Of a stretch of DNA of 64,000 nt, positions 9,412 to 63,800 are shown piece by piece (within the stretch, counting starts at the first letter, position 1; each line of letters starts with the position of its first letter). Below the pieces are notes generated by a model that had not been told where the DNA came from, made no database searches, and worked only from the letters and a program-made list of their open reading frames with translations. The position numbers and the translations under genes were made by a program. Origin of the DNA: Yuukianura sp. NJ FZ-2021 (lineage: Eukaryota); contig CM102285.1 in NCBI GenBank assembly GCA_046563655.1, forward strand, positions 2,356,001-2,420,000, given 5' to 3'.

Positions 9412-11125
9412 AGTGAAGCTAACGTGGTCTCAGGAGAGACTAACCCAAACACTATTGTCTAACATTTCTTAATAGAACGCGAAGAAAAAAGAAGCTAACA
9501 AGATTGAATTTTTAATACTTATAAGCCATATTGTAGCCTTGGTACTTTGATATCAAACGAGTAAATTTTGTTGTCAGCTTTCATGTCTTATTATTTTAAA
9601 TTGGGGGGAAAGTTCCGCAACCATTTTTTTTTGTTTTCCATTTTTGTTTAAATAGTTATGAACATTTGCTTGCTTTTTTGTCTCTTGAAAACTCAGTTCA
9701 TGGCTTTTTTTTTCGAGGATAAGTATAAAATTCTTTGAATTAAACAGTTTAACGGAAAGTTCGCTTCCCATTTGCTCATAATTGGTCGTATAGATAAAAA
9801 ATCCGGTCGTAACCCGGAGTATACGAAAGTAGCGAAGCATTTGACCTTTGACCCGGAAGGAGTTGACCCACCGGGATGATATTCAATAGTGAACATCACC
9901 GGGTCACCCGGTAAAACAGATCCCGGAAATGTTGAGCGGTTCCCGAGATAATCGCCGCTGACGGCCGGCCGGACCGGCGCCAGAAGTGCCGAACTATGCA
10001 TCAGGGGTCTCCACGGAGCACTTTTGTGCGCGTTCGCTACTTGTGTACATTCCAATTTACATAGTATGCCTCATATACCTACAATATGTACGACACATCC
10101 AAATACATGTGGCATATCAATTGATTGTTGTTTTATTGACGTGATTTATGAATAGTCAAGAAACGTGACTGAAATTCTAAAAACTGGAAAAGTCAAGTTC
10201 ATATTGTTAAGAATTTATTCAGAAAGCGTCAAAATTGTACAAAATTTGCCGGGAGTTAGATCAATTCGCAAAATTTAAATCTTACTTTCTGGAATATTTC
10301 CAGTAATTCTCCTCAATGCCAATGCAAAACCTCAAGAGTGGCGAAACGAATCAATTGCTGCAAGACTGCAATTGAGATTTCAAACTTGCGTTTTAATAAT
10401 CTAAAACAATTCAAGTTCACCAGCAATATGATAAATCACGAAAATTTTACGTATATTTTTTTTTACTACATTTATGCTTAAGCCATTCAGATTAAGATAT
10501 AGATTATTCAGGTACCTTTTAACTTATTCAATTTGAATAAGTCATGACAAATATTATGCATAAAAATTTAGTAGTCGTAAGGTTTACACATGATTGTAAT
10601 AACCGTACGGTGTAGCCACTTTGCAGCTTCTACTAGTTGATAGTAATAACAACATACAAGGTATACGCTTGGTTGGCTGCGCTGTATCGCTATGTAAGGC
10701 GGGTTACCCGTTAGATTGGCTGCAAATGTTGCCATTCAGTTGTAGCCGTCTAGTATAGCGTCGCATGGTGGCCGGATTGGCTCACTGTTTGGTTGTTACA
10801 GTAGTTAAGCCGTACTTCAACAAAAGATTGCAATTGCAAGTCCTATTTGCAGAATAAGAATAGATGTCTTATTTTGCCATTGCAAAAGCTTCAGAAATTG
10901 GTAAATAATTGAATCATATGTTTAACCATTCAGTTTCGCACGTCATGTGTCGTCGTTCATCAGTTTAGGGTTTCTGGTTTCATTGATCGTTTATCTTCTA
11001 CTCTTTGTGAATAACCAAGCATCCGTCGTCATCCACATTACGTAAGAACAACACAACTGTCGAATCCTTCTGAAGTTCTCGGTTGTTTATTTCGCCATTA
11101 CTTTGTATTCACAACAGCGAGAAGC

Positions 11126-25265: not shown

Positions 25266-26679
25266 CTACTTTGTGATGGACTGCAGTTGTACCAGGACAA
25301 CGTTGTATGAAATGACGGTAGCGATCACCTAAGATTATAGATTAATGATGTGGCTAACATTTTTTGTATTGTTTTTAATGTTTTTGTGGTAAAGGAATTT
25401 ACCGATGTAAAAAGAGCTCTGTTCACTTTAAAGTAGCCAATTGCATCAAGTTCAAAATTCAGTGTTGTTGCCAAGTGCTTTAATGCTTTTAAGCGATTTA
25501 CGTCTGTGGTCCAGTATGGTTCAATTCGGAGTATTACCGCCGACAGCGACTCGCCCTACAAACAAATTCTTCAAAAACTACAATTTTTCTATTTTCAAGT
25601 AACTTTTAAAATCAAACACCAGAAAATATATTTTGAACATTGTAAACCTGAATTTTTAGTTGTTCTCCACACTCCACAACCCAAAGGAATTCAACCAGTA
25701 CTACTGCAATGTAGAACGCAATGAAGAGATTTAATCCTGGATTGTTAATGATGGGCTTAGCATAGTAATTGTACGCAAGAAATGTGAATATAGTGAGGAT
25801 TACAGTACTGCAGCTCACAGAAAACAGAACAATGTACTTGACGCTGTCTTTGAACTGTTCAAAAATTGAAGTCAGTTCAAGTAATTTCACAGATTGTCGT
25901 TTGAGGTCAATGTATTTAAAGTATGGACCGTAAGTCCTTCGCTCGAAGGCTACCCGTTGCAAGTTTGTGATGCTCGGAATACTCCTTGGTGCTAAAAACT
26001 TTTCAATTTGTTCTAACCGGTAAACTATCATATCCGTGAATACCCGAATCAATGCAAGTGACAATATTACAGCAAAGCGGGTTAGGAAAACGTTAAACGG
26101 AAGTAACCAAGGTAGCAACCGGCGGACAATTTGAAATCCGCTCCAGTACGCATCCAATTCTGTCCAGGCATTCATTGTGTCCAAGTTATGTATACGACGG
26201 CGTACCATTAACGTTTCTATCACTGATCCTACAAACTGTAGAAAGAAAACGAAGCAAAAAGCGGCAAATCGAGTTTTACTGTAAACAAAACTGAGGCCAT
26301 GGTGTGCGTGAGAGTAGTTGCAAATTTTGTTGAAAATCGTCAGGAGCTGTGGTGTAATGGATTTAAATGATATGTAGGTTGTTGTAAAGTATATTGCACC
26401 AGTGCAGTGCAGCACATTAAAAGTTTGGAATTCAAATTTAGATGGCTTCAAACTGTCATCTAGCAATTCCCAATGTAGGTCTCTCGAGTAGGTGAAGTAT
26501 GGAGTCAGAAGGATAGAGGTCAAACATACGCACAGATTGCAGATGATGGACCACACTTTTACTGAAATGCGCTGATTATAAGTATAGTTGTTTTTGGTTT
26601 TTGAAAATTTAAATGGAAATAAACCGATACTGTTGCCAAGGAGCCCTAAAAGACAAAAAAACTGCAAATCTTGCACCAT
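25266..26679 (-). CDS. Gustatory receptor (7tm_7-like), 3 exons (26679-25648, 25555-25403, 25328-25266)
   Basis: N-terminal IGLFPF motif; C-terminal FELDAIGYFKVNRALFTS|VIATVISYNVVLVQL matches the GR TM7 signature; phase-0 C-terminal introns typical of GRs. Confidence 0.85.
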
Positions 26680-27292
26680 GTTTGATTTTTCTGGAATGTC
26701 AGCAAGTACTGAAAGAATTTTTTCAATTCAAGAAAAGTCACTTTGTATGCTAGTATTTTATACACCGTTTTGCAACTTCAAACATGTGTGAAATTACTAC
26801 TCAAAGGTCATACTACTACTGCGGAGATAAGTGTGTAGTTGTATAAAAAGATCAGAACAATTTTCAAAAATTGTTAAAAAATTTCAAATTTGTTTGCTGA
26901 ATACCTTACGGTTAAATTGAGTTTAATTTGCTTCCACTTTTGACACAAAAGCCAAAGGCAATGGAAAAGTGACAATTTATTTTTCTCATAGTCATAATAA
27001 TCTGGAAAATTATTTCACGATTACCTTGTAGTAATTTACATAAATTTGGTGAACATGTATTTATTCAAGGTCGCTCAAAATTTTGACAAATTTCTGTATT
27101 TACTCTAAAGCATAATAGTTAAAAACATTTTTAAAGAATTTTTAAATTCATATTTATTTAAGTTCACATAGTAAAACAAAAGGGAATTAATACATAATAA
27201 CATAATTCAAACTGCATTTTGTATATATTGTCTGTTTAGTACGTACAGTCGGGAATAAAATGTAAGGTTGATATTTGGTTTAATTGTAACTA

Positions 27293-29000
27293 TTACATTT
27301 GTGTTGCTGAGTTGTCATGTTGAAGCTGTATAAGGACTACGTTGTACGTGATGACCACACCTCCGATCTGCTCTCAAAGAAATACAGTGTTTTAATTAGT
27401 TTCCTTCAAGCTAATTAAAAAGTTTTTAGGTAAGTAGTTTTCAGCTACACTTACAGATGTAAGCAATGCTCGATTCAACTTGAAGTAACCAAGGCCTGTC
27501 AGTTCAAATTTAATTGTAGTCGCCAAATGTTTCATGTATGATAGTGTCCTTTCATCCGTCCCCCAACACTCCTCCAGTCTACGCATCTCTTTTGAAAGTA
27601 AGTCACCCTAAATATTTATCAACCTTTTCACTACTTTTACAAAACTGACGATGCCAAGGTTTGTTGACTTGTGATTTTCTTTAACAGGTTAGATTAGACT
27701 ACCTCATGTTTTTTTTGATTTTGCAAGGAAAAATATTTTTCTCATGTTGGTACATCGTAGTCTTAACAATACAGCCATTTTTTTTTTAATTTTGCATACG
27801 AATTGGTAACAAATTATCGGATTAATGCTAAATTGGTTCTGATTTTCTTTGGTTCTTTGTCAACAAGCGAGTTACTACCCAACCTGTTAAAAAAATTAAC
27901 TTTTTGTTGTCAAGCAACCTTGGACAATGCCGAGAAGAACAAAAAAGTACGGTAATTTACTTTTGAAAAACATTTGGACAAACCTGACGTTTTACGCGTT
28001 CTCCGGAATCCGCGAACCAAATGAATTTAAGTACAATTTTTGCAACGTTAAATAACGTTAAAGAGTTGACCATAATATCATTGTGTGTCCATGAGTAGGA
28101 GTTATGTGCATGGAAAACGTAAACTGCAAGTGCCAGTGTTCCTGTACTCACAAAAATCAGAATTATATAGTTGACAATTCCTTTCAAACTCTCAAAAATG
28201 GAAATTAGGTCCAGAATTTGCGTGGCAAAGAGTCTGAGGTTGTCGTTTGGAAAATTCATTCCAGCGTAACTGGTTGTATTTTTAGTTTCAACGCCTTCTA
28301 ATACTAATGAAAACGACGGCTTTTGTGTATTTCGAACAAGCCGCATTTGAATTTCGGATATCCGATGTACGATCATGTCAATAAAAATGCAAATGACTGC
28401 TAGTGTAAATGCAACTGAACAGTACAGCAGCATAGAATAAAGTGCATTCCACCATTCGAAAACTACTGCCCAGGACTCATATCCATTCCAGGCAGAATCT
28501 GCGCTAGACTGATCCATTACCTGCGTACTGCTTACACTAAAGCAAATTTGCATTAGCCCTTCAACAATTTGCAGTAACAGAATGGAAATGAAAACTCCGA
28601 TTCTTTTGGCTGAGTAGATGAAGATGGTATTTGTTCCGTATTCCCGAGTATAGTCGTACATCATGTTGAAAAGATGCAAAAATCTGGATGCAGAGAGTGT
28701 GAATGCTACGTAGTTTGCAACATAGTAAAATCTGCTGCAGTAGAGCAGAAGGCGAGAAACGTCCAAATCCAATGGAGAAAGTTTCATTTTGTCCCAGTTT
28801 CTGTTAATTACGTAAATGTTGTGTGGTGTTAAGGCAATGGTGCTCAAAGCAACAAAAACGGTGCACACAATGAACCAAATTCCAGTTGGACTGCGGTAAC
28901 TACAAACGTAATAGTCATTGTTTCCCACAAATTTAGCAGGAAGAAATCCTATGATAATTCCGGTTTTAACCAAAGCCCGAAAAAATTTCAAATCTTCCAT
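27293..29000 (-). CDS. Gustatory receptor, tandem paralog, 3 exons (29000-27984, 27607-27455, 27367-27293)
   Basis: IGFLPAKF near the N-terminus; FELTGLGYFKLNRALLTS|IGGVVITYNVVLIQL C-terminus; same intron positions as the neighbour. Confidence 0.85.
27655..27922. mobile_element. P-element-like MITE (CAAGG...CCTTG) in GR intron 1
   Basis: 8-bp TSD GACGATGC / GACAATGC (1 mismatch); same family as 4229-4704. Confidence 0.7.
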
Positions 29001-29793
29001 ATTTTAAGTAACGACTGTGCAGAGTTTCGCTATTTCTTCCAACAAAGAAAGCCATTACCCTCGTCTAGTTTGCTTTTATAGATCGGCGTAACAATTTGTT
29101 CACAATATTTTTGTACCTAAAATTTGTTCAAATTACTAATAATTTCAATTTGGCAAGAGTAACCACAATTTCCCGCCCCAACGCATTTGTACAATACATT
29201 TGCAGTTAGCAGAAAAAGTTCAACTTTTCGATTTCTCAGCAAAATTTAGGACAAATCACTTTTATTACGCCCTTTTTTACATTTGTTTGCAGTAGAAATG
29301 CTAGAGAATTTTTTTTAAATGGAGCAGTTTATCACCAAAGCTTTGAGCAGCAGCTAAATACCTAAAAACACTATTCAAATAAACAACATAACGAAGGAGC
29401 CAAGGGTTATTTAGGTCGAAACTGGAGTTCTGAAATGACAAGTTTCCATAGAAACCGACTTTGCAAACGAAGTTACAAATTTAGGTGGCAAGATGAGGAC
29501 GCTATGTTCCACTTTGTGACGACGTTTCGCTACTTTTGTACATTTTGATTTACTAGGCCATTATTTATTTATATATCTGTTTATGAGCAACTGAGAAACG
29601 AACGTCATTACCTGGACATAAGCTGTTTAATTTAAAGACTTCTGAAACTATTCCGCTAAAGAAGGACAGGGCTGTGGTTTTAAACGATATCATCAAAAAA
29701 GGCAACGATGTTATAGATGACTCCCATTACCACTTAGTTTCCATTTGTATAGCGGTTAGGCGGCCCTACTTTGTCCAACGTTCCTGTCACAAT

Positions 29794-31180
29794 ATGTTGT
29801 CTGAAATTTCTTGGAAGTACATATTGAAATTCTTCTACGATGGCTCCCAGTGGAGGTTGTGCACATTTCAACTAATTTCTGTTGAAGGTGAAATCGTTCC
29901 ACAGAAACGCAACTACTACTCGGCTAGAATATTTACAGCTATTTGTATTCTCTTAAATTTGATCGCTATTGTAGCATATTCTGCTACTGCGTTACACGTT
30001 CGAAATGACTACACAGAGCTAATCTTCATTTCTGGAATTATCTTACTCGTCTCATTTTTAACTGGAATGCAGCTATGGTACTTTGTATTTGAAGAAGAAA
30101 TTTACGGCATCATCTCAACCTTCCTCAAAATCAACAATCAACTCCGTAAGTGCATTTACCTTTTGAACTTTGACAAGGTCAATCTTAATTAGTACTTCTA
30201 CTTTTTCAGATAAAAGCTACGGATTGCCGGTAATTTCACAAGGAAAAGACGGATATGAACCAGCGCTAAAAATCACGAATGCGATATTCTCATATACGCG
30301 CATTTTTATTGTTCCTGCAATGGTATCATTTTTCCTAGTCTCCGGTACAAATATAAGCCGAGCAACATATATTATATATGAAGCCGTTCTACGGTTTTGC
30401 TTTGGAGTGGAGAATTGGATCATCGTTGGCGGCACAATTTTCATAACAGAAACACTTTTTGCATTGACGTTTATAAATGCTACCTTTGCATTATATGTGT
30501 TTACTTGTAGCGCTTTAATGTACACAAATACAACGAGACTTTGGCTTCAACATTTAACGTAAGTGCAGTAGAAATGATAAGCACCAAATCTGTCCGAAAT
30601 TTTGTTTGATACCATTGTATTACTAATTGCATTACCAACTTCGCCAAATGTTCGAAAAGCAAACCTATGCGCCATAATATTGCTTTTGCAATAATAATGT
30701 GTACTTTGTTGAAGGGAAAGGGTGATTAATGTCGTGGAAAACAAGGATAGTCAAACGTACGAATGTCTCCAAGTTATGAACAAGTATGCGAACCACGTCT
30801 TTGCAAATTTGGTTGCATATGCAATATGCTCCTGCGAAATCATGTTAATTATATTCATGTATACTGTAGTCAAGTCGTTCACAGCAGAGTACATCGTCCT
30901 GCTACAACTATATATCTTGTCTATTGCCGTAATTGTGTTTATTCTGACGGAAGCAGTGAGCCTAGCAGCACTATGTCACCAAAACTCCACAGAGTGTAGG
31001 CATGCCGGAATCTACAATCGACGCAAAAGTGGAGAATACAGTCGCAGGTTCTGGCGTTCAAGACAATTAATCAACGTCAGAGTTGGACAGTGGTTTGTGC
31101 TGGACTCCAAGGCTTACCTCATCACACTCTATGCAGACATCGTCCTGCAAAACCTCATTAACCTCCTCGTTGCGTACTAG
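29794..31180 (+). CDS. 7TM chemoreceptor-like family A, copy 4 (MLSEISWKY type), 3 exons
   Basis: Closest paralog of 3682-5566, in inverted orientation; ORFs 29674-30192, 30170-30562 and 30722-31180. Confidence 0.75.
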
Positions 31181-32059
31181 ATGTACACCGTAAGTTGAAG
31201 CCAAAGGTTAGGTCACCCAACTAGAGTTCTGAAATGCCAACCAGTGTCCAGCAACAGCCAATAACGGTATCCTAATGCAATTACCAAATGAGTCATCAGT
31301 AGATCCATACAAATTTAATTTATTTATAATTTGGTTTTGCTTTTATATCTTCTCTAATGAAATCTAGTTTTGATCTTATTTGTTAGAATTATTTAACATC
31401 CAATTTCCAAAAAATTTTGTCGTTCCACCCATGCCTACGTTTGACCACGCAAAGCGTTCGTAATAATTAAACATTCTTGAAATAAACATACGGATGGAGT
31501 CGAGGATAAATGGATACGTAGAAACTGGAGTAGTGAAATGGCAACCAGTTTCCCTCAACGCTAAACTTTTCTGAGATCTGTTTCTTATCTATACGACCAA
31601 TTATGAGCAACTGGGAAGCGAACTTTTGCACTGGAACATTATCTGTTTAATTCAAAATATATTAAACTAATCCCTGAAAGAAAGCCATGGACTGAATTTT
31701 CAAAAGAGAAAAAAGCAAGCAAATGTTCATACTTATTTAAAAAAAATTGACAAAAAAAAAACAAAAACAAATACAAATACAAATACAAAAAACAAAAAAA
31801 ACGGTTGCGGAACTTTTCTCTCAATTTAAAATAATTGGACATGAAAGCTAACAAGAAAATCCACTCGTTTGATATTAAAGTTATAAATTGTTTAGGGAGA
31901 CGTGCTGGATGGGCTGACAAGAAGTTATACCAAGGCTACAATATGGCTAATAAGTATAAAAAATTCAATCTTTTAGCTTCTTTTTTCTTCGCGTTCTATT
32001 AGGAAATGTTACGCAGTATTGTTCGGGTTAGTCTCTCCTAAGACCCTGTTAGCTTCACT

Positions 32060-33403
32060 ATGTTGTCTTACACTACTTGGAAGTACTCATTGAAGGTGTT
32101 CAATGATGGGTGCAAGTGGAGGTCATCGTCATTTCGAGTAGTTCTAATTAAGGGTGAGATCGTTGCAAAAAGTTGTGACGAATATAATACCAGACTCCTT
32201 ACAGCTATTTGCCTGGTCTTAAATTTCATGTCAATTGCATTGTATTGTATCATTGCGTTCCTGGTGCAAAATAACTACAAAGAGTTCATCTTTATGACTG
32301 GCATGATCATAGCACTCTTAGGTGTGACTGGAGTACAACTCTGGAACTTTGTATTTGGAACAAAAATTTATAGCATCGTCGCAACCTTCTTCAAATTAAC
32401 CACTAAACTCCGTAATATAGTTTTTGTATAATATTAGAATTTTTGTGTAAATTAAATTGCCGCCTGAACAGTATTAGTTTCATTGACTTTACGTTTAATT
32501 TTTCAGATAAACGTTATGGACTACAATTATTTTCAAAAGAAAAAGATGGATACGAATCGACGCTAAAAGTTTCGGCTAAGATATTCGACTACACGCGTAT
32601 TATTATCATACCGACAGCAGTATCATTCTTGTTATTTTCCGATACACGTATAACCGAATCAATTTACCGTCTGTATGGAACAGTTCTTCATTATTGCTTT
32701 GGAGTGGACAGCCAGGTCTTCACTGGAATAATAATTTTAGTGTTGGAAACATTCTTTTGCCTGGCTGTTCTTAACGCTCTGTTCTCAGCGCTCATAATTG
32801 TTAATACAATTTTACTGTACATGAACTCAACGCGGCTTTGGCTTCATCTTTTGCTGTAAGCGGTTAAAAATTTTAGCCTAAAAGTTTAAGATTAAACCAA
32901 AGTCTTTTCTGCACGTTGGAATAATTTGTGCTATCTTTTGAAGGGAGAAAATGAATGACGAGGACCACAACCACTTTTTAACGTACTCTTGTCTTCAAGT
33001 CATGAACAAGCAAGCCAACTACGTATTTGCCAATTTAGTTGCATATGGAATAAGCGGTTGCGAAATCTTACTGGTTATTTTTATGTACTCGTTGGTTTCG
33101 TCACTGGAAGGAAAGTATATTGGCATGCTCCAACTGTTCATTTTGTCTACCAGCGTAATTATTTTTGTTGTGACGGAAACAGTGAGTCTAGCAGCACTTT
33201 GCCACCAAAATTCCATAAAATGTAGATTAGCAGGAATTCACAACCTACGCTACAGGAAGTATCACCGCAAATTTTGGCATTCAAGGCAACTTATTAGCGT
33301 TAGAGTTGGGCAGTTGTTTGTCTTGGACTCAAAAGCTTACCTCCTCACACTCTACGCAGACATCGTACTACAAAACGTCATTAACCTTCTCGTAATGTTC
33401 TAA
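32060..33403 (+). CDS. 7TM chemoreceptor-like family A, copy 5 (MLSYTTWKY type), 3 exons (approx. 32060-32411, 32507-32855, 32944-33403)
   Basis: Intact frames with GT-AG boundaries; inverted near-copy of 1038-2381, including about 700 bp of 3' flank. Confidence 0.78.
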
Positions 33404-38345: not shown

Positions 38346-38824
38346 TCGAGTAAAGTAATTACTTTGTACATTTTTTTACAATAAAACATGAAACAAATAC
38401 TCATTTAATGGTAAATTTGTACACGAGAAACATGAATATATCTTGCGATTGTGTCCACTCTATGCTCAACTATTACCAATTCATGAGTGACCTTTGCAGT
38501 TCACAAGCTTGTTACAAAAAAAAGAATGTTAGTGGAACGGTTAGATACGTGTCTGTTTTGTGCTATTTTCTTTTCGGATTTCATTAACGTGGTGTAATGT
38601 GCAAGGAAACAGTGGAACCTACTTAGGTTCTTTTTAAGTAGAAAATTAAATTTCGAATTCCAAAATTGGATTAGGGCAATGCCTGATTCTATTTGTAGAA
38701 AAGCAGCGATGGTCTGATCAAACTTTCACCTTGTCCAAGCATGGGCCTGTAATGTCTCAAATTCAATTTGGAAAATTAGCAGTGAAGTAATAAAAAATAG
38801 AGCATGACTCAGCATCGCAGTAGC

Positions 38825-38997
38825 AGTAGGAGGGTAGAGGGGACTTTCACGCCAAATCAACCTTTGGACCCATAAGGTTTTAAAGCAACTGGCGTGAGAT
38901 CCCAAAAGTCGGATTAATTAAGACTAATTAAGACATTCTTCAAGACTAATTAACACTTCCGTTCAAGACTAATTAAGACTAATTAAATACTTCCTGT
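38825..38997 (+). repeat. Left terminal inverted repeat (173 bp)
   Basis: Base-for-base reverse complement of 47897-48069; contains repeated AAGACTAATTA units and an internal TCACGCCA / TGGCGTGA inverted pair. Confidence 0.95.
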
Positions 38998-39799
38998 GAC
39001 TATTCCTGAACGCACTAATTAGCACTGCCGTTCAAGACCAATTAACGCTTCCTGTGTCAAATTAAATACATCCCGCGACAGTTAAACGCCATCTGTTCTC
39101 ATTAATTAGTCGTATTAGCAAGACGGTTTAAAAGGTGGCGTGGATGTCTAAATGGTCAGTTACTTTTCTGCATCCATAATGATTCTATCTCCAATTCCGT
39201 TCTCTGGCTCCCTCCAATTTGTTAAAATGGATGACATGAAACCTCCCATTAAAATCCAATTTTAAATGTGTGGAGAAACCTAACCACGAGCCAATAGGAA
39301 CAACTTTCCCACCAAATTTGAAACAAAAAATGCATGCGTCACTGAAAATTATGAAATTCATACTTTAAACCATGAATAGTTAGGATGCCTTTTATATCAT
39401 GTGTAAACTAACCAACTTAGTCTATAGTCCTTTTGCAAAATCGGACACATGCACCGGTAATTGGTGGTTTCCGGTCTTAATCATTTCCGGTCTACAACAC
39501 CTGACCGTTATGTAGGTGTTATAGGTTAAGGAGCAATGAAGCTTGAACATTGTTCACAACTTTTAAACGAAACAAGAAAGGACTTGTAATCCTTTATTTT
39601 CAAATTTTTTGTAAATCCATTAATGCTTCCTAGAACAATTCTCTTAACGCTACGTGTGAACATTAATTAAACACACTTGGCCAGGTTCTTTAATTACTTT
39701 GCCAGCTTGCTTTTCAACTTTTAAACGAAACTAGAAAGGACAATCATTTTTCTTCAAATTTTTAACATCTGTAAATCCTAGTTACATTAAAATTACAAG

Positions 39800-40495
39800 C
39801 TATGGAGTGGTTAGAACACCATGAAATATGATGCTGCCAATTACATCAGCACTGTACGGCTTCATTCGAAGTTCCTCGAGCGTAGAATACATGCTACGTG
39901 TAGAACTCTCCATAACAAAGGTTCTTCGACGGATCTGAAATTGTTGGTGTTTTGTCAAATCCAGCAAATGTGACGTATATTGTTTCCGAATGTGTTGATT
40001 TGTTTGTGGACAGCAGCAATTAGGACGATCGAAAACACTTCCATTACTTGGAATTTCTTTATTTCGACACCTACTCAAAGCCAATTCGCGTAGATCCTTC
40101 AAGTAGCTTCGTTTTGCTTCATGGATAACTCTATCCAACGATTCGTCTAAATACGAAGTTGGAAATGATTTTAGGAGTCTTCCAACCAAACGTGGAACTT
40201 GATCCAGCTTAACAGCAGCAGCGCCAGACGCTCGAATTAGGAATACTTGATCATCTTCTCGTATGCAATGAATATTCGCTTCCCTGATTTCCCGGATTGA
40301 TTCTACCTGGCTCGCTTTCTTACGATTTTGAGCCAGAATTTTTTCAAAATGCGGTAGGTCAGCCATCATTTTCCCCGCTCCAATGTATAGAACAACTAAC
40401 TTCTCAACTACCGTCGTCAGTTCCTCCAAAGTAAAAGTAATGGAAAAAGATGAATTTCTGACTTCAATACCGGATGTGGACGAAAGTACTTCCAT
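39800..40495 (-). CDS. Element-encoded protein of unknown function, 231 aa; paralog of 40781-41497
   Basis: Intact ORF; shares EELxTVVExLV, LPHFEKxLxQNR, YLxESLDxxIHExKRxY and LDxTKHQQ with the neighbour. Confidence 0.8.
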   Translation of the reverse strand: MEVLSSTSGIEVRNSSFSITFTLEELTTVVEKLVVLYIGAGKMMADLPHFEKILAQNRKKASQVESIREIREANIHCIREDDQVFLIRASGAAAVKLDQVPRLVGRLLKSFPTSYLDESLDRVIHEAKRSYLKDLRELALSRCRNKEIPSNGSVFDRPNCCCPQTNQHIRKQYTSHLLDLTKHQQFQIRRRTFVMESSTRSMYSTLEELRMKPYSADVIGSIIFHGVLTTP

Positions 40496-40780
40496 GTTGA
40501 GCTAATTTAAACTCGCGTTTCCTTCTTACGACCAGTTAAGACTCAACTAATTGGGACTAATTCATTTTCTTTTTGCTTTGTTAGGAGGAGCTAACTCCCT
40601 CGCCCCCAGGACTATGAATCTGATTGGCTCTTGTACAAAAAACGTTTTTGGAACTTACTTTGACCATGTGATTAGGGGGAATTTAATGCCACCCACGTTC
40701 AGGGGGGAACGCAGTGCTACCTATACAGTTTAACCATCACCATCCATTTACTATTGTACTAAAATTTACTATTGCCAAGA

Positions 40781-41497
40781 ATGGAATCTACCCTACCGGA
40801 AGTGTTTCTAAGCATGGGACTCATTGGCGTCAGGATTTCTGGAAGTTCAATTATGTTCTCATCCGAAGAACTACCAACGGTTGTAGAGGAGCTAGTCAAA
40901 GCATATATTGAAGAAGGAAGAATGATTAAGCATCTTCCACATTTTGAGAAGCTGTTACTACAGAACCGTAACAATGCAGCAAAGCAAAATGAGTACTCGC
41001 CGGATGAACCACTACTGCCGATTCATTTTATCAAGGACGCATCATCTCGTGTCATCCTTATCCGAAGCGGCGCGCCTGTTATGATCGATTTGGACCATAT
41101 TCCTCTGCTGGTTGAGTCACTTCTAAAATGTGGATGTTTTCCTATCACATACTTGGAGGAATCTTTGGATATGCTGATTCATGAAACTAAACGCGGCTAC
41201 ATCGAGAAACTTCGCAATGAGGCGTTCCGATCCTGTCACAACAAATTGGAAATCGATCCTTGTAGGAGTATTTTTGGCGAGTTCAACTGTTGCTGCACAA
41301 CAATTAATACATCAAACTACAGTCAACATGTACTGGACGTTACTAAGCACCAGCAAATGGAAATTAACAGATGGAAATGGGGAATAGATAGTTTCTATGG
41401 TAAGAGAGAACTTGCTGTACTTGAGAGTATTCGACTAGAGCATTATTCCAGTGACATAATTTGGAAAATTACTTTTCATGGTAAAAGAGATTGCTAA
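40781..41497 (+). CDS. Element-encoded protein of unknown function, 238 aa; paralog of 39800-40495
   Basis: Intact ORF from ATG at 40781; TATA-like CTATA near 40721; AATAAA at 41517. Confidence 0.8.
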   Translation: MESTLPEVFLSMGLIGVRISGSSIMFSSEELPTVVEELVKAYIEEGRMIKHLPHFEKLLLQNRNNAAKQNEYSPDEPLLPIHFIKDASSRVILIRSGAPVMIDLDHIPLLVESLLKCGCFPITYLEESLDMLIHETKRGYIEKLRNEAFRSCHNKLEIDPCRSIFGEFNCCCTTINTSNYSQHVLDVTKHQQMEINRWKWGIDSFYGKRELAVLESIRLEHYSSDIIWKITFHGKRDC

Positions 41498-41525
41498 ACG
41501 GTCTTTATTCAAGTCAAATAAATTA

Positions 41526-42266
41526 TCAATTATTTCTGTACACAGTACATCCGACATCGGGAAATATATTATTACGGATTCTAAACCTATCATCCTGGGA
41601 TTGGTGCAGGTCTATAAATACATGACCATACGGTTTTTTCATAACGTCTTCATAGCACGATTCCAGAGCTTCGTTACGTTTTCCGTTTTTTGTTAGCTGA
41701 CGTCCGAAGCAGAGAACTTGAGAGACTTCTCGAGGATTTTTCGTGAAGCCTGGCAATTTGTAGTTATCGTTCGTTGTCCTTTCTCGAAGAAGTTTTGAGT
41801 GACGAAAATTATGCTCACATTCCTGTGGTGGCTCGTTCGAGTAAATGCTGAGGCGATATGCTTATTAGCACAAACTTCCGTTCGTCAAGTACGACGATGA
41901 GTGTTGTAAGGGCTCGCAAAATCGTCAGGTAATCCATAGTGAAATTTTTGGGATGTGACTTTTCAGATCCTTAAAAAATTCATTCTCCGGCTCTCCATAA
42001 CAATAAAGGATATCATTAATCGGAATATCAATCATTTCAAAACGTTGAAGGAGTAATTGCTTAAGAAGCGACGACTTCCCACTTTGGCTTGCTCCGCTAA
42101 TTGTCATGCAGAATGGCGCCTTTAGCCTATAATCAAAACACTCATCCGCTGTGGTATCACGATCCGCTGTAGTATTATCTTTTTCCTCATGTCCATGTGC
42201 AGTATATACATGGCGTTTAAGGTTATCCGAACGTGTGAACGTACTGTTGCAAACACTACAATCCAT
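41526..42266 (-). pseudogene. Maverick A32/FtsK-like DNA-packaging ATPase with N-terminal C2H2 finger, broken by several short deletions
   Basis: CSVCNSTFTRSDNLKRHVYTAH, then Walker A ISGASQSGKS; in successive frames FHYGLPDDF, Walker B LIVVLDE, SHHRNVSIIFVTQNFF, KNPRE and KPYGHVFIDL. Confidence 0.85.
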
Positions 42267-42329
42267 GCTGTTGTGAATGCTGAAACACAATTGATGAGGG
42301 ACAGAAGTGCCTCCCTTATCACACCAACG

Positions 42330-42480
42330 CTTTATATACACCACCACCACCAGTCTTGCTAGGAGGAGGAGGAGGAGGAGGAGGAGGAGGAGGAGGAGGA
42401 GGAGGAGGAGGAGGAGGAGGAGGAGGAGGAGGAGGAGGAGGAGGAGGAGGAGGAGGCACCACCACCACCACTATAAAACT
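42330..42480. promoter_or_regulatory. Putative bidirectional promoter (outward-facing TATA boxes around the AGG array)
   Basis: TTTATATA at about 42331 (TATATAAA on the minus strand, about 65 bp before the ATPase ATG) and TATAAAA at 42472 (about 50 bp before ATG 42521). Confidence 0.55.
42361..42456. repeat. (AGG)32 perfect microsatellite flanked by (CAC)n runs
   Basis: 96 nt of uninterrupted AGG; ACACCACCACCACC on the left and CACCACCACCACCAC on the right. Confidence 0.97.
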
Positions 42481-42520
42481 GTTGCAACCGAAAAAATTTG
42501 TTCAGTTGCATTTGTACATC

Positions 42521-42952
42521 ATGCCTGTTTACTGTGACATTTGTTCCAAGTCATTTTCCCGCGCAGACGCCTTAAATCGACATATTCGCACTGCGCATTC
42601 AGACGAAGCTATGGATTCTGACTCAGAAACGGAAACTGAAGCAGAAACGGAAACTGAAGAAGAAGATGACTCTAAGGCACATTCTGGTTTGAGCAAATCC
42701 AGCTTATCGCTAATTCTTCATGCGCTACACAATGCGGATATTGGAGTTCAACGGTTAACTTTGGACAGTTTACTTAAGCTTGTGGAAGGAGCAGACGATT
42801 CTGATTCAGATGACGATGAAGAGGAATCATCCGACCAGTTGGATTCAAGTCAATTAGATTTTTTAATAGCTGTTGTAAAAGCCGGAAAAAGAAATGTAAT
42901 CAATATAACCAAAGCAGGATTGTTGACAATGCTTGACAAAATGATTTTATAA
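42521..42952 (+). CDS. Element-encoded C2H2 zinc-finger protein with acidic tracts, 143 aa
   Basis: ATG at 42521: MPVYCDICSKSFSRADALNRHIRTAH, followed by D/E-rich stretches and two similar helical segments; AATAAA at 43004. Confidence 0.8.
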   Translation: MPVYCDICSKSFSRADALNRHIRTAHSDEAMDSDSETETEAETETEEEDDSKAHSGLSKSSLSLILHALHNADIGVQRLTLDSLLKLVEGADDSDSDDDEEESSDQLDSSQLDFLIAVVKAGKRNVINITKAGLLTMLDKMIL

Positions 42953-43009
42953 ACATTTATTGTTTTCAGTTTTACGATTACTAATTCAATAGACACGACT
43001 TATAATAAA

Positions 43010-46000
43010 CTATTGTTTAATCACATCCTTATGTCCAAATGCTAATGTGTTAATTCTATCAACACCATATCGTTTCGTATCTAAACCGTTAAGAGCCCTT
43101 TTTAACGTAACTTCTGTGAAAATTCTATGCTCTACACTTCTAAATCCTCTCATCCATACACGAGTTTGAACATCTTCTTTAAGGACTTTCTCGAAATCTT
43201 CATACGCTATTTGGTTGTTGACAGCAGTTTTAGTTATTCCTTTGACTTTCTTCGTGTATTCGTCTTTGATGAACCAGCTGCCGTCAGTCTTCTTTTGGTA
43301 AATATTTTTCCCATCAAAGCCTCGGTAGACTTGAAGTTTCAAGGATCTAATGGTGTACATTTTTGGACGAGGGCAAACGACGTGAGTGACTACAGAACCG
43401 GCAGCTTCATCTTTGAATTTTCCCAAAACTTTCTTGTTTGTGGGATCGTAAAACTCTCCAAAAATGGGGTGATCGGACTCATATTCACTCATGTCATACA
43501 AGTCCTTGTCATGGAGCATGTCTTGATAAACGTCATCGGTTTGGATGTGATAGATGAAGGAATCTGAAATAAAAGTTTAAAGTTAGCTTCAGTTTGGATG
43601 TGATAGATGAAGGAATCTGAAATAAAAGTTAGCTTTAGTTTAAAGTAAGGATTGTACGACATTTACCTGTATCAGTATAAATAAGGCGGCACTTCTCGAC
43701 GCCGTATTTGGCTTGTATCGTATAATGATGTCGATACATGATGCTCTTTGCTAGCTCAAGCACTGTGACGCCCGTATATATTGGCTTATTTAAGGTGACT
43801 TGAAGTCTCCTCATCATAAAGATGCATGTTGACTCGTTAATTGGAATGACATTCTGGACGGTGGGTTTCTTGTTGTAGCGTAGAGCTTCTTCCATTGATG
43901 TAACGATACGAACGTTTTGACGCTTGCGAACTTGCTCGATGGTTTTGCCAAATGCGGAGTTGTTGAGAAGTTTCCAATAATCCTTTTCAAAGTCCGATGT
44001 AGCCCTTTTTCTCATTTCAGTGTTAAAGTCGATAAAATCCTTCATCCATGGTCTCTGATTGAAGGAAATTCCACGGTGAAGTTTTGTAACTTTAACTCCA
44101 AGCTTCAAGTACTCCATCAAAATTGCATGATGCAGAATATAATTCTTCTTATTGTTTAGATCTGCCACAAGTTTCTTTACTTTGAAAATTCCAGGACCTG
44201 TGTTGAGTTTTTCCGTCAATTGTAACTGGTGACTGGATAACTCCTTTTGTTCAACTGTACGACTAACTGGAGCTGGAGGAAAATCATTTAGCTTGTCATG
44301 CAATGAAGGATCAATTTCCAAATCCACTTCAAGCATGTATCCTTGTTCGTTGTCCATGATGAAATGGTTTTCTTGAAGTCTCATCAACTCCTGTTCAGTT
44401 AGCCAGCGGAATTGCCCAGTTGGAAGCGGAAGACTCATGCTTTTGCCCTAGTGAATAATTAAATGGTTTAGATAATAATTTTTCATAGACGTTGTTGAAT
44501 ACTTACATATAAGTTGTTGGCATCGATGTAGATGAGGTAACTTGATTCCTTTTCTGGATCGTATTCATCTCCCATGTACTTGTTGTTCGCTCTAGCTTCT
44601 CGCATTGATCCAACGCTAACGTATCCACCTAAAAATAAATGGATCAGAAAATGTCTACCATTTGTCTTGTAGGTTTTACCTCTAATAGCATGCTCCAGCC
44701 AACAATGCATGGTTGGATCTGTGATTAGTTCCAATTCCACTCCTGATTTCTTGAGAACGCAATCCATTGCCATCATAGGTAACGAAAAATAATGAGCCAG
44801 GTCCAATTCGTAAGCATCAAACATTATTTTTCGGATTCCCTCCATAACATCAGCCAGAAGCGATACATCTAGCCTGACGTATAAGTCATGCCAATCTCCC
44901 ATGTCTTGAATGTTGAAGTTCTTCCAGACTTTCTGAGCGTGCTCATACACCTTATCGTCAATGGGTGTCTCCGTCAAGTCATTGTAGAAATCTTCCTTTG
45001 ATGGTAGATTTTTGGTTTTGAAATCCTTGCAAGACTTCATGAGTGAATAAGGGTAAACACCCTTTTCGAAGAGAAGTTCAATGTCATCGTTTTGTGCAAA
45101 CTCTTGTCTGGTGATTGGAAATTTGGCATTGGGATCGGCTCGCATCACTTTCACTAATTTGTCCAAAGATTTCAGTGTAAATCCAAGACTGTCTGTAAAC
45201 CTCAGCTTGAAGGGTTTCTTCTGCCAGCGAGGTGGTTCTTCGTCCTCATCGAAATCATCGTGGTACGCAGGAACGATGCTCAGCGACATGTATTTTTCAC
45301 TGCTTTTGGGAATTACAGTGATATCTTTGATGATTCCATCCTGTCTGAGTTTTCCTGCAGATTGGACGATGAAGTGAACGTCGTAAGATGAAAAGTTGTG
45401 CATGAAGACGGGAAACTCCTTTTTGATTTGTGCTTGGAGGTTACAATCTTGGTGAGCCATTCCGATGTAGTTGAACGGTGGAAGATGCGAATGGTGTCGT
45501 ACTTTGGTTCCATCCAATATCTTCTTGCAGAAACAACAATTTTTTCAAGAGCAGCAGCACTTCTTTGTGCTGGAGTCAGATTTAGCATGTCTGGAGCAAT
45601 TTTTTCGTAGTACCGAACTTCCTCTTCGAGTGTTTTGGAGTACTCAGTAATGCTCTGAATGAATTTGGCAGCAACGTCTTCATCATCGCTGGTGATATGA
45701 TAATATTCACCATGTCGTCGTTTTCCATTGAAGTCCACGCAAACCCATGCATATCCACATGGCTTGTGTAGGTGAGTGCAACATTTATTAACAGGCTGAA
45801 CTGGTCTTCCACGTACCTCTTCTTTGAGTTGTCGGCGCTCCTCCTCTTCTATAGTTGTTGGATTAAACTTTGGGAGGAAAGCTTCAAAGTCAGCGTAAAA
45901 TCGAAATGGTGTGGGCTGAGTTCTGTCCCACTTGTTGAAAGTCAATTTGTTGTTGTCAGTTGGATATACAACTTTTTGAAGATCCAAGGAAGCGCAATAC

Positions 46001-47307
46001 TTGATGTGCTGTTGAAGAGTGTGAGCTGATTGGAAATTGGAGAGACAGTTGCGACAAATATGCTTGACTTTGTGATCATTTGGCGCTCTCATTAAGGCTT
46101 CAAGATTTCGAATCAGAATGAAGTGTGCGTTGTTTTCTTGCATAAGACACATCAAGTCGATGTGTATTTCCTTCGGCTGTTGGGAATTGTACAGTATTGA
46201 GATCTTGCTTTGTATAAAATTGAATGATTCAATTTTGCTCAACTTCGGTGGCTGTGGTCCATCCATGTCATAACCAAGAATGGTTATAGAAATGTTTGGG
46301 TTGAGTTCTTCAAAGTGAGGGATCTGATCCAAAGTCATCGGAAAATGGAGTCCTTTAGTGTTCAACTTGTATTCATTTGGCTGGTATGTTTTCACAAGCT
46401 TGTCAATGCGGCACCTATGGTTGTTTTTCCCGACTGGTATGCCACCGATTTTGTCATGGGCGAGCACTGACCAGAGGAAGCATTTGTTGTGGGAATTGTC
46501 CATTGAGAATTTGCTGTTGTTGATGTTAAGCAGAACTTTTTGAGTTGATAGTGGGTACGGGGTGTCCATGTATGTACCAATCTTGGTGAATTGATATTTT
46601 GAAGTGACAAATCCAAATTTCCGAATCGAATCCAGAGTCCAGCCGCTGCCCTCATTGGTAAAGTCTTCAATCTGGTCCGACATTTGGCTGCACATGACTG
46701 ACCAAACTTTAGGTAGCATGTTTGCATTGAAGACAAGGTGTCGAAATGAGGTGAATCCAACATCCTTTGATTCTACCGTTCCATCTCCGTGCGTTTTGGT
46801 GAAGTGACACCCCAAGGTGAAAAATATCCTTAAGTTCTTCCATCTGGAGATGTCTTCTCGGATGACTTCATAGGATGATAGTTTAACATTCGTAAAAAAG
46901 TCTCTCTCGTCGACACCTTCACCACATGGAAATGTATCAAAGTCGGCCATGTACTTGCGACTCATTTTTAGAGATTCCAGCACTAAAGTCACGGATATAG
47001 GATCGGTTGATATTCCTCCGCCATCTTGAATGCTAAAGTCTGGATGAGTGGTGTAGAAATGCTCTTGAAGCTTATTCCGACAATCAAATGGTATACCACA
47101 TGTATAGCAAAACAAATGGCGAAATTCCTGTAGAATACTCTCGTTCGTGACATCGTAACCTGGTGGTGCTGGTTCAAGGCAGTTTTTATGGACATGGTCG
47201 AAATGTAGTTTTAATATTGCTCGAGAAGCAAACCCTTGAGCGCACAGTATGCAATTAAATTGTTTACTTGATGGTCCAACAATTGGTGTTCCTTGGCGCT
47301 TTGACAT
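43010..47307 (-). CDS. Protein-primed family-B DNA polymerase (pPolB) with N-terminal C2H2 fingers and an HNH-like insert; 3 spliceosomal introns (44629-44679, 44448-44506, 43564-43666) and one frameshift near 45540
   Basis: Exo motifs YADFEA, FMHNFSSYDVHF, YVRLDV; EKGVYPY; after splicing IRGGYV, YIDANNLYGKSM, KLLNNSAFGKT, YTDTDSF, LGKFKDE, RPKMY, KVKGI. 4298 nt - 213 nt of introns + 1 nt = 4086 nt, i.e. 1361 aa plus stop. Confidence 0.92.
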
Positions 47308-47630
47308 TGTTTAGGACAATAAGATTCTTAGGACAATAGAACTGAGTTGTGTAAAGACTGAAAGTCTCCGTAAAACTTAGCGACAATCTTAGGACAATAG
47401 AACTGAACAGTAGTTGCGCAGAGACTGAAAGTCTCCGTAAATGTGTGGTATTATATACCCTCTCGACACCTGCCGACCCCCTAAGCCGACCCCCAAAGAA
47501 TTTGTGGGTCAGGGTATAGCCTTTTTTCGTGTTCCTCCTCCTCCTCCTCCCACCCGCCAGATATTGTTAACGGACAAAGGTATTAATTAAATAACAGGAA
47601 GTGTTAATTGTCACAGGAAATTAGGATTCT

Positions 47631-47882
47631 GCCAGAGCCGACCCCCTAAGCAAAAGCCGACCCCCCAAACATTATTGGTTTAGCTTTGATTCCCACATTT
47701 TTTCTTCCTCCTCCTCCATGGTCAGCGGACAAAGGTACTAATTAAATAACAGGAGTGCCAGAGCCGACCCCCTAAGCAAAAGCCGACCCCCCAAACATTA
47801 TTGGTTTAGCTTTGAATCCCACATTTTTTCTTCCTCCTCCTCCATGGTCAGCGGACAAAGGTACTAATTAAATAACAGGAGT
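47631..47882. repeat. Subterminal tandem duplication, 126-bp period (2 near-identical copies plus a degenerate copy at ~47470-47600)
   Basis: GCCAGAGCCGACCCCCTAAGCAAAAGCCGACCCCCC... at 47631 and 47757. Confidence 0.9.
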
Positions 47883-47896
47883 GTTAATTAAAGTCA

Positions 47897-48069
47897 ACAG
47901 GAAGTATTTAATTAGTCTTAATTAGTCTTGAACGGAAGTGTTAATTAGTCTTGAAGAATGTCTTAATTAGTCTTAATTAATCCGACTTTTGGGATCTCAC
48001 GCCAGTTGCTTTAAAACCTTATGGGTCCAAAGGTTGATTTGGCGTGAAAGTCCCCTCTACCCTCCTACT
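47897..48069 (-). repeat. Right terminal inverted repeat (173 bp)
   Basis: Exact reverse complement of 38825-38997. Confidence 0.95.
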
Positions 48070-49270
48070 GTAGCAGTGGAATTTTTTCTTTTGTAGAAGC
48101 ATGCATAGTTCATGATGCAAGTGAAAGCGATCTGCAACTTTTCATTTCAAATTGATGTTCGCTACATTTTCCCTCTTCTGGTTCTCATCCTTCTACTGCT
48201 TGCTCGCTCTCTGGCTGGTTTGGGAGACGTTGCGACGACTTCGCTTCCTTCCTGAAAGGCTTTGCCAGTCTAGGCCAAGCTGCTTATTTTCGTCAACCAA
48301 ACGCAACAAAAATTTTTCTTGCCTTCACTGAGTAAATTTTATGTCTTTCTAATTTAATCTATCGGTAATGGCAGGAAAAAAACAATACTCTTTAAATTCT
48401 CTACAACTTTTTGTTTCGGAGTTGGCCTATTCATGCTCAATTTTCACTGAATCATCTGCCATCGTCAAACCAAAATAAATAAAATTAGTAAAATTATAAG
48501 TCAGCTTTCGCTACTTCATAAAACCAAATTTTTATATAAAAAAAATTGTTCATTTTGATGTCGGGTTTGATGTTGAAAAAAATTAAAAAGGCAATGTAAA
48601 AAGCCACGTACCGAATCTATGACAAGATTTTGATTCGACGATTTTATTTCCGAGGGTTATCTAATTCTGCTTACCGGCACTAACTGTTTTCTTTTCTAGA
48701 CTGAATCAGACGCTCGCTTTCTCTTTCGTTCCACATCTACTATAAAAAGAGCAGCATCTAGTGCTTTTCAGAACACAAGAGCAACCCTAACTTTACTGAA
48801 ATCAGTCTAAAACCTACGAGATCCCCACTTTCACTTCTAGTGCGTCGTTTTCAGTTTCTAGTTAACAAAGCCTTACATTTTGGATTTACCTCACACAAAA
48901 GACTTTTGTCACATCATCCAACTTTCACTTCAACCTTGTATCTACTAACGATAAGTAAGTTTAAGCTTCTTTTCCATCTTACTTTTTCATTCTCCAAACA
49001 TTTTCAAAAGTTTTGAGTTTTTGAGTTTTTTTTCAAAGCCCATCTTCTGGTGCATTGTGCACAAATCAATGTCAGTCATGAGCAAAGTGAAGCATGTTGG
49101 TTTGTTTATTTTGTGGAAAAGGTGATCCAGACACACGCTCCGTCTTCATCAAGGCCTTTTCCTACAAGTGGATGGCCTTTGTGGCGTCCTGAGCAGAAGC
49201 AGTAGTATCAAATTCACTAGAAGGGCCCTACCTAAAACCTAGAATTTCCTAGAAATCTCTAGCACTGGTT

Positions 49271-62129: not shown

Positions 62130-63800
62130 ATACTGCTTTAATTGTGCGGATACACAAAGTTAAAAACCGTATTGAATATAATCTTGTGGAATCTTGCAAA
62201 ATCTTGTGAAATTGGAAGAAATGATGTTGGTTTGAATGAGGCCAACCTAACTTAACGCTGAAAACCACACTTTTGATTTTCTCCAAGCTTCGAAGATTCA
62301 TGGATTTACTCTATGCATTTCAAAAATGTTGGAAACAAGAACCATTAATTTAAATTAAAATGCTTATGTAAAGGTTGTTGACATCAACGTAAGCGAGGTG
62401 ACTACCCGGCTTCCTGGATCATATTCGTCGCCCATATAACGATTTAGTAGTTAGCGTTTCTCTCTTAAATCCAACACCAGCATTGCATTACCGCTTATAA
62501 TGAAAATTTATTAGACACCTTTACTTTCCAAATCTAACTTTCTCGCTTCCAAAAAACACCAAAGAAGAAACAACAAACAGATCAATTACCTGTTAGTCAA
62601 AAATTTCATCAGCACTGGCAGAATTACGACAGCTTTGAGCAACAAAATGTTGCGTACATCCGTTTTCAACGCTTCCGTCATGTAAAAGGTCATCTACAAA
62701 AAGTACCAAAGGTTTATTAAACCTTAATCTATGTAATAGTCAATTGTAAATGAAACAAATTATTCCTTTGCTAACATCATCAAAAGAAACGTTTGATGCG
62801 AGTGGATTTGCGAACGTTTTCTCCAAATTTTCGATTATATAACTGTTGAAAATTTTCTGAAGTTTATTATTTTGTCACTCCTCTGTAGCAGCTTTCAGTG
62901 CTGAGCAATTTACCAAGCCTTGGATTTCAAATTTTTCAACCATGTCTGGACGTTGATTTTTCTGTAAGGCATGCACTCAATCAAATTGATGTATTTTCAC
63001 AAATAAATAATTTAACTTTATTTAATTTGCAATCGCCTCCACCTTTTCAAGTTGCCATTCTGAAGTGCAAGCTGCACTTCTGCATGCTGCATGTCCAGTT
63101 TTTCCACGAGCGTTCCCCTCGGTATAGAAACGTCGGCGTCAGTGATCCAGCCTGCCTGGGGCAATCTTTTCATAAATGTCTACTTATTTTTGAAAAGTCT
63201 TGCAAAATCAGAGACTGCTCTCAACAAGGCAAACTGCATCAATAATGTCGGTAGCGTGATAGAATTCACCCTGTCGACGTTTCCCTTCACAGTCAACACA
63301 CACCCATGCATTTGCAGAAGAGTCTTGGGTGCTAACACGACCCGCGTTTCTTTGGACTTCTTTTCCTTTGACCCCGTCATTCGCACTTTGTGTCGCTGAC
63401 GACAAACTTCATGTTCGCAAGTGGAATCGAACTTGTTCAGGAGCGCTTCAAAATCGGCATAAACGCAATCCAATCGTTTGAGGTCTTGCTCGCCGTTAAT
63501 TACCGTATAACTAGGATTTTTAAGATGTTTTAAACGTATGCTTAACGGAAAGGGTGTCGCTTTCTTAAACGCTTCACAATCGTGGTTTCTGGCTTCTTCA
63601 GCGGCTTGTAGATGCTAGCGTCAGTTCCATCGAAGAATACAGCGATACAGTGGACGGGATAAAGCGTTTTGGAAATCTTCGGTCTCTAGACGCTAAGAAT
63701 TGCACATTTTCCGACGTACTCACCTTTTGAAATATCCGTAACGTCGTTGGTATCGTATCCAAACTGCTCTTGGGTTACCTTGCTATTACCACAAAAGTCC
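62130..63800 (-). pseudogene. Decayed relic of a second, divergent Maverick pPolB
   Basis: Fragments colinear with the intact pPolB: YADFEALL, AWVCVDCEGKRRQGEFYH, NRYMGDEYDP, AYVDVNNLY, SKSMNL; many stops and frameshifts; boundaries approximate. Confidence 0.75.

Follow-up and report, generated by a model that had tools for sequence, protein, structure and literature searches.

A Maverick/Polinton-type protein-primed DNA polymerase gene with three predicted spliceosomal introns in conserved motifs

Introduction

Maverick/Polinton elements are defined by long terminal inverted repeats (TIRs) together with a target-site duplication of 5-6 bp, and among their genes is a protein-primed DNA polymerase B (pPolB). 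Their length is given as ~15-20 kb in the available sections of PMC5718144. Here, we analyse a pPolB gene and the element around it in a 64,000-nt stretch of DNA from Yuukianura sp. NJ FZ-2021 (assembly GCA_046563655.1, contig CM102285.1, positions 2,356,001 to 2,420,000 of the forward strand), hereafter the window, in whose own numbering all positions are given. The gene contains three short segments with GT..AG ends, and every comparative test that we ran on the sequences supports their assignment as spliceosomal introns.

Core genes of this class of elements have been described as uninterrupted. In the sections available to us, intact vertebrate Mavericks are reported to be intronless, in agreement with Kapitonov & Jurka 2006 (Barreat & Katzourakis 2021, PMC8097293), Widen et al. 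(2022 preprint, 10.1101/2022.07.12.499685) call the core genes intronless and regard introns as indicating cargo, and Bellas et al. 2023 (PMC10120064) state of endogenous viruses that they "do not contain introns". These three sources, as far as those sections go, agree with the initial annotation of this stretch, according to which Maverick pPolB genes are usually described as single open reading frames (ORFs). The annotation had further argued that ORF-based screens would miscall intron-bearing elements as dead, and the definitions in use bear this out: the available text of Barreat & Katzourakis 2021 (PMC8097293) defines intact elements by intronless ORFs, and that of Jeong et al. 2023 (PMC10748475) requires a pPolB ORF of at least 900 aa. 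The accessible sections of Starrett et al. 2021 leave splicing unmentioned. Introners, by contrast, have been described in dinoflagellate maverick-polinton-like proviruses (Gozashti et al. 2025, PMC11957031, in part). For animals, the limited literature that we searched contains no earlier account of a core Maverick gene with spliceosomal introns, which makes this a weak claim.

Results

Three GT..AG segments interrupt the polymerase gene

The pPolB gene occupies 47307..43010 on the minus strand, from an ATG at 47307-47305, with an in-frame stop a short way upstream, to a stop codon at 43012-43010. Judged by their consensus forms, the exonuclease motifs (Exo I, Exo II, Exo III) and the polymerase motifs (Pol A, Pol B, Pol C) are all present, as is a KxY motif (Table 1). 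The motif names are those used in the available sections of Jeong et al. 2023 (PMC10748475). Three segments with GT..AG ends lie within the gene, and the coordinates that the initial annotation had given for them proved exact on the minus strand. Removal of the segments yields AIR-G-GYV, DANNLY/GKSM and YTDT-D-SFIY, where the slash marks a junction between codons. The accompanying statement that removal exactly restores the motifs IRGG, DANNLYG and YTDTDS thus stands. The exon lengths of 2628+122+781+554 = 4085 nt, however, are not a multiple of 3. All three segments have GTAA donors and T-rich acceptors, and at all three sites GT..AG ends coincide with a removal that restores reading frame and protein continuity, the combination that characterizes a U2-type intron. 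By our own estimate, the chance that three insertions pinned by homology should all have GT..AG ends is roughly 0.0035 cubed.

The in-frame codons of the gene form five blocks: A (47307-45547), B (45544-44681), C (44626-44507), D (44447-43668) and E (43561-43013). The genomic reading frame changes between blocks C, D and E, so that only spliced RNA could give a full polymerase, and an unspliced reading runs into a stop within a few codons of entering segments 2 and 3.

The exon pieces abut in homologous proteins and related loci

We aligned each block separately to homologs, and the exon pieces were never joined. Among 206 homologous proteins, no residue separates blocks C and D in 136 of 141 informative cases (ends not reached in 4, one outlier), exactly one residue, that of the split codon, separates D and E in 155 of 178 (21 not reached, 2 outliers), and 0-1 residue separates B and C in 104 of 132 (28 not reached). 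We compared the same joins in DNA from 80 metagenome and 26 IMG/VR loci, 106 relatives in all at 33-55% identity; the remainder of each count is uninformative, as ends were not reached or a piece was not found. The C/D gap is 0 in 66/68 metagenome and 20/20 IMG/VR loci, the D/E gap is 0 in 65/65 and 21/21, and the B/C gap is 0 or -3 in 57/58 (one -4) and 18/18, respectively. None of the informative loci among these 106 carries an insertion at any of the three sites. Over 242 homologous proteins and the 106 related contigs, the exons on either side of the segments meet to the codon. Since the exon pieces abut both in proteins and in DNA loci, the three segments are, by alignment, insertions that the uninterrupted relatives lack, and their positions are fixed to the nucleotide.

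Copies of the family keep the segments and vary as a spliced gene would

Other copies were taken from DNA contigs of four runs (X1-X4), one of which may be the window's own source; the runs come from two samples and two studies. The contigs are 88-99% alike, and the polymerase family is multi-copy. Diverged copies keep the segments, with a single X1 contig (44416-44701) covering both introns 1 and 2, and no contig of the four DNA runs joins exons without the segments. Among 12 of the 21 indel places, 7 fall in the 213 intron bases and measure 1, 1, 1, 1, 4, 2 and 1 nt, none a multiple of 3. The exon indels among the same 12 comprise a -3, a compensated +1/-1/-3 cluster that occurs together in the same contigs, and the site of the frame break (see below). 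Intron 1 differs by 1 nt in length in the single covering X1 contig and in part of X2-X4; for intron 2, each of the four runs has one contig with a length difference of 2 nt.

We classed the 40 best-supported substitutions of 570 variant places, of which 2 fall in intron 1 and 38 in exons. Read in the exon frames, 30 of the 38 between-copy exon substitutions are synonymous, and 30 are on third codon positions. When the same base changes were re-placed 5000 times, 12.8 synonymous changes were expected (sd 2.9) and no re-placement reached 30. The ratio of synonymous to nonsynonymous changes is 10:0 in block D, 10:4 in E, 8:3 in B and 2:1 in A. Since the synonymous excess extends over blocks of different frames, the family is, on this comparison, selected for a protein that spliced RNA alone can encode.

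An apparent insertion recurs at the motif-C site of relatives

The last residue of block D was reached in the alignments of 218 homologs, 205 of which continue with DS. Nine others read TDTG and then stop within 1-94 residues; they form about seven clusters at 38-57% identity, and the 8 in which another residue follows all carry K, N or M there. A GGT codon followed by AAR, AAY or ATG fits read-through of a phase-1 insertion that starts with GTAA or GTAT, and the nine proteins have the form that read-through of an insertion at the window's intron-3 site would give. The metagenome and IMG/VR scans returned uninterrupted relatives only, not including the contigs of the TDTG proteins. One of the nine, P0002 (TDTGKS..., then a stop), is 91% identical to P0327 (TDTDSLI) and differs from it at the motif-C site. 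The site is thus apparently occupied in the window's family and in the TDTG clusters, and empty in P0327 and in the closest relative. At the intron-2 site, 30 of 220 homologs have a Met start no more than 8 residues downstream, 13 of which come from the 15-member cluster of P0061; as a sign of an insertion there, these starts are only suggestive.

Comparison with host introns

We delimited 11 host introns by eye in a PANK4-like and a Na/H-exchanger-like gene of the window, with lengths of 60-132 nt and a median of 83 nt. Their donors read GTAA, GTAT or GTGA, their acceptors are T-rich, and their end motifs are the same as those of the element introns. AT content is 0.71-0.76 in the element introns, 0.62-0.77 in the host introns and 0.58-0.61 in the element exons. 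The match to host introns in size that the initial annotation had described is therefore approximate (50-59 versus 60-132 nt, the host introns being delimited by eye); AT content and end motifs are alike. The host PANK4-like gene has its best matches among arthropod proteins, at no more than 52% identity, which marks the host as an animal. No second copy of any of the three introns was found in the 64-kb window, and the three are unrelated to each other. A self-splicing group I or group II intron or an intein-like element was considered and rejected: 50-59 nt is far too short, and no catalytic RNA of Rfam was matched at E up to 1 in 38800-48100.

Frame break and duplicated 3' splice site in the window copy

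The 1361-aa model of the initial annotation conceals a frame break at an A6 run (45545-45540) between blocks A and B. The homolog P0046 is collinear across this run, with residue 586 of block A aligned to its residue 534 and residue 2 of block B to 535. In other copies, the run differs in length by one base, namely in 4/4 covering X1 contigs and, in X2-X4, in 3-5 contigs that make up 37-51% of the summed depth. No comparable frame break occurs in some 3 kb of the window's host coding sequence. Programmed frameshifting at the A-run was rejected, since its heptamer does not have the phase that a canonical -1 slip requires and the run simply has a different length in other copies.

The frame break directly precedes a nuclease-like segment at the start of block B (45440-45544, minus strand), where CxxC...HH.H...CN aligns with a stretch that is Endonuclease_7 (PF02945) in relatives. 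This family is over cutoff in L019, L046, L062 and P0017 and under it in L006 and P0006; the window's own piece has no Pfam match.

At intron 3, a tandem duplication of 53 nt (43536-43577 and 43589-43630) copies the last ~27 intron bases together with the first 26 exon bases and creates two identical 3' splice sites. Use of the upstream AG (43618-43617) would give an intron 3 of 50 nt and a shifted frame, and the distal site alone keeps the frame. In X2 and X4, contigs in which 43571 is joined to 43624 represent copies without the duplication. From this joint, the intron 3 of the family is ancestrally ~50 nt long (43666..43617) and has been enlarged here by the 53-nt duplication.

The element around the polymerase

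Two TIR arms of 174 nt, 100% complementary and 8899 nt apart, bound an element of 9.2 kb (38825-48069) that is flanked at both ends by the 5-bp direct repeat GTAGC (Table 1). The element thus has the TIRs and the flanking direct repeat of a Maverick/Polinton and falls short of the length of one.

Upstream of the polymerase ATG (47320-47881), subterminal repeats comprise TATTGTCCTAAG in three copies, a pair of 30-nt repeats spaced by 67 nt and two copies of a 126-nt unit, and their number varies among DNA-run contigs.

Downstream, a small C2H2 ORF lies tail-to-tail with pPolB at the position that the integrase takes in relatives. The pieces of the ATPase remnant align with the ATPases of relatives in frames -3, -1, -1 and -3, with a Walker B-like LIVVLDE in a further, third frame. 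Two further ORFs are paralogous and have LPHFEK..QNR and HQQ motifs in common; neither matches a Pfam family, and the protein atlas gave nothing usable for 40763-41494. Most of the interval between the ATPase remnant and the C2H2 ORF, which are divergently oriented, is taken up by a trinucleotide microsatellite of ~110 nt, (CCT)n/(GGA)n, at 42362-42470. C2H2-type motifs are found at the N-termini of three element genes, twice in the polymerase (47210-47260 and 47040-47110) and once each in the ATPase remnant (42190-42260) and the small ORF (42521-42600), of which the small ORF alone passes the Pfam cutoff; the relative P0327 also has a finger-like motif near its N-terminus.

An rve integrase was found neither by Pfam among the ORFs located at 33.5-57.5 kb nor by tblastn of relatives' integrases against the window. 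Likewise, no capsid or protease was detected by Pfam in the same ORFs or in tblastn searches that used 393 ORFs from related loci. The related loci carry an rve integrase (in six of them), a Pox_A32 ATPase, a Peptidase_C5 protease and a double-jelly-roll capsid beside the polymerase, and homologs that align end to end with the exon pieces pass PF03175 (DNA_pol_B_2), among them P0006 (58.2 bits, cutoff 25.8), L017 and L077. From the gene neighbours of its relatives and from P0006 passing PF03175, the polymerase belongs to the Maverick/Polinton clade.

The window copy is probably a defective deletion derivative. Its identical TIRs mark it as young, and it presumably moved in trans. With its frame break, doubled 3' splice site and decayed ATPase, and with integrase, capsid and protease not found, it makes a poor candidate for a live element.

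Table 1 Features of the element in window coordinates. Introns are predicted; a slash marks the position of an intron within a motif.
Feature	Position	Strand	Description
Left TIR	38824..38997		174 nt; GTAGC at 38820-38824 has its counterpart at 48070-48074, and 38825 may thus be the first base of the repeat proper
Two divergently oriented paralogous ORFs	39803-40501, 40763-41494	-, +	no known family
A32/FtsK-type packaging ATPase remnant	41526..42264	-	Walker A GASQSGKS; at least 4 frame changes
Small C2H2 ORF	42521..42952	+	one zinc finger, acidic tail; zf-C2H2 29.8 bits, cutoff 25.2
AATAAA	42956..42961	-	49 nt past the pPolB stop; possible poly(A) signal
Exon 4	43010..43563	-	554 nt including stop; (D)SFIYHIQTDD..., KxY motif PRPKMY
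Intron 3, as required for an open frame	43564..43666	-	103 nt, GTAAAT..TTTCAG, phase 1; within motif C YTDT/DS, splits the second Asp codon
Exon 3	43667..44447	-	781 nt; GKSMSLPLP..., Pol motif B KLLNNSAFGKT; ends YTDT + G
Intron 2	44448..44506	-	59 nt, GTAAGT..CACTAG, phase 0; splits Pol motif A IDANNLY/G
Exon 2	44507..44628	-	122 nt; ...GYVSVG...YIDANNLY
Intron 1	44629..44679	-	51 nt, GTAAAA..TTTTTAG, phase 1, in frame, stop-free; splits the Gly codon after AIR
Coding block B, rest of exon 1	44680..45544	-	Exo II NFSSYDVHF, Exo III YVRLDVSLLADV, CxxC..HH.H..CN nuclease-like insert; ends AIR + first base of the Gly codon
A6 run, frame break between blocks A and B	45540..45545	-	homologs collinear across the run
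Coding block A	45547..47307	-	587 codons from ATG; two C2H2-like fingers N-terminally, Exo I FYADFEAF; aligns to the N-terminal halves of full-length homologs
Right TIR	47897..48070		174-nt arm

Surroundings in the window

Another polymerase fragment lies at 62368-63464 on the minus strand. It belongs to a different family, is short and decayed, and is 39-45% identical to parts of blocks A and C. It has a YADFEA-like Exo I motif and gives one weak high-scoring segment pair with full-length homologs of >900 aa; it is too short and decayed for a test of intron positions. Multi-exon genes that encode multi-pass membrane (receptor-like) proteins and are paralogous to one another form arrays on either side of the region (1-9430 and 25600-33400). 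At 7459-8222, a GC-rich stretch (52%) has long overlapping ORFs on both strands with Pro/Gly repeats (PPGGxGG...) and looks like a tandem repeat rather than a gene.

Discussion

We consider it likely that this locus holds an intron-bearing Maverick/Polinton pPolB whose window copy is probably a defective deletion derivative. In the mechanism that we propose, the gene would be the pPolB of a virus-like element of an invertebrate animal, with three short U2-type GT-AG introns in a multi-copy family. The host spliceosome would have to remove the introns before the polymerase can be translated; the element would multiply as DNA, so that the introns are copied along, and the 9.2-kb TIR-bounded copy in the window would have been mobilised in trans.

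Several observations weigh against this interpretation. Intron 1 is in frame and free of stops and, on the window copy alone, could be read as coding. The element introns of 50, 51 and 59 nt are shorter than all 11 host introns that were delimited by eye. The frame break could be a homopolymer assembly error, but the ~3 kb of host coding sequence contains no such break; together with the doubled 3' splice site, it makes the window copy a poor guide to a working element. Only a subset, 40 of the 570 variant places, underlies the synonymous excess. P0347, the closest relative (74% and 67% identity), reads TDTDS and has no insertion at site 3. Finally, Pfam gave no match for the window's exon pieces (E up to 0.01 or 1), and no solved structure was matched by a profile built from exon-3 relatives (E up to 1).

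Three other explanations have to be weighed. The segments might be inert insertions in a dead and passively copied pseudogene family, with no splicing and no polymerase from intron-bearing copies. The damage to the window copy, the genes for autonomous transposition that were not found and the uninterrupted state of all 106 related loci are what such a family would leave, and yet GT..AG ends with GTAA donors are found at all three segments, every exon block has a synonymous excess, including blocks brought in frame by splicing alone, indels that are not multiples of 3 cluster in the segments, and the nine relatives with an apparent insertion at the motif-C site have first residues that fit splice donors. 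We regard this explanation as very improbable. Equally, if only introns 2 and 3 were real, 44629-44679 would be a family-specific coding insertion of 17 residues beside IRGG, as its 51 nt, a multiple of 3 without a stop, would allow; an optionally retained intron would be compatible with the same features. The ends GTAAAA...TTTTTAG, an AT content of 71%, the lack of the segment in every informative homolog and a 1-nt length difference in other copies, which would break a coding frame, make a coding insertion very improbable.

A polymerase gene domesticated by the host could have gained introns as any host gene does. Its place inside perfect 174-nt TIRs with a flanking 5-bp direct repeat, the many diverged copies (88-99% alike) in the DNA runs and the adjoining decayed ATPase of the same element type leave this explanation with hardly any credence, although purifying selection on the exon frames, host-like introns and an integrase and a capsid gene that were not found in the window would agree with it.

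A broader interpretation of the intron-bearing pPolB family is possible, and we put it forward tentatively, as rather less likely than not. An animal Maverick lineage may have kept introns in the catalytic motifs of its own polymerase through DNA multiplication under purifying selection, with its replication tied to host splicing, and the motif-C site may be an intron position, either ancient or repeatedly used, at which introns are rapidly gained or lost. If so, ORF-based censuses would systematically miss a class of live elements. Surveys of Mavericks and Polintons often use ORF finders or prokaryotic gene callers and equate intact elements with intronless long ORFs, and an intron-split polymerase family under purifying selection would be scored as dead by them. 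The case for taking introns as a sign of host-derived cargo, which is made in the available sections of the Widen 2022 preprint, would also be weakened. With a motif-C site that is occupied or empty in close relatives, the family would offer a natural case for intron gain and loss in a DNA element, and a virus-like element would, as adenoviruses do, have its replication tied to splicing by the host. This significance is independent of whether the window copy is alive.

Comparison with known systems

The locus resembles Maverick/Polinton (adintovirus-like) elements in a polymerase of 35-57% identity with its exonuclease and polymerase motifs and in TIRs with a short direct repeat. Relatives of this group have the nuclease-like insert (PF02945) in many cases and, at their loci, an rve integrase, an A32-type ATPase, an adenain-like protease and a double-jelly-roll capsid. 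The differences lie in the three polymerase introns, in the length of 9.2 kb and in the integrase, capsid and protease genes, which were not found here.

The Drosophila P element is a DNA transposon whose enzyme requires host splicing, with control exerted at its third intron. The likeness lies in a transposon enzyme that would need host splicing; nothing here points to tissue-specific retention, and P-element-like tissue-specific control, which the initial annotation had raised, would be speculation. In adenoviruses, whose protein-primed family-B polymerase is that of a nuclear DNA virus related to Mavericks, the E2B polymerase mRNA is spliced. The dependence of the element on host splicing, as proposed in that annotation, is favoured by blocks C, D and E, which need spliced RNA to be joined, and by analogy with adenovirus it would not be new in principle. 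The arrangement differs, since adenovirus E2B splicing attaches a leader or start exon, short and upstream, to a single long ORF, whereas the three short introns here lie within catalytic core motifs.

The dinoflagellate proviruses, as described in the available sections of Gozashti et al. 2025, likewise have spliceosomal-type introns inside integrated elements, carried along with them. Their introns are copies of multi-copy intron-generating transposons in protist hosts, whereas those of the element described here are unrelated to one another, with no second copy found in the window, and the host is an animal.

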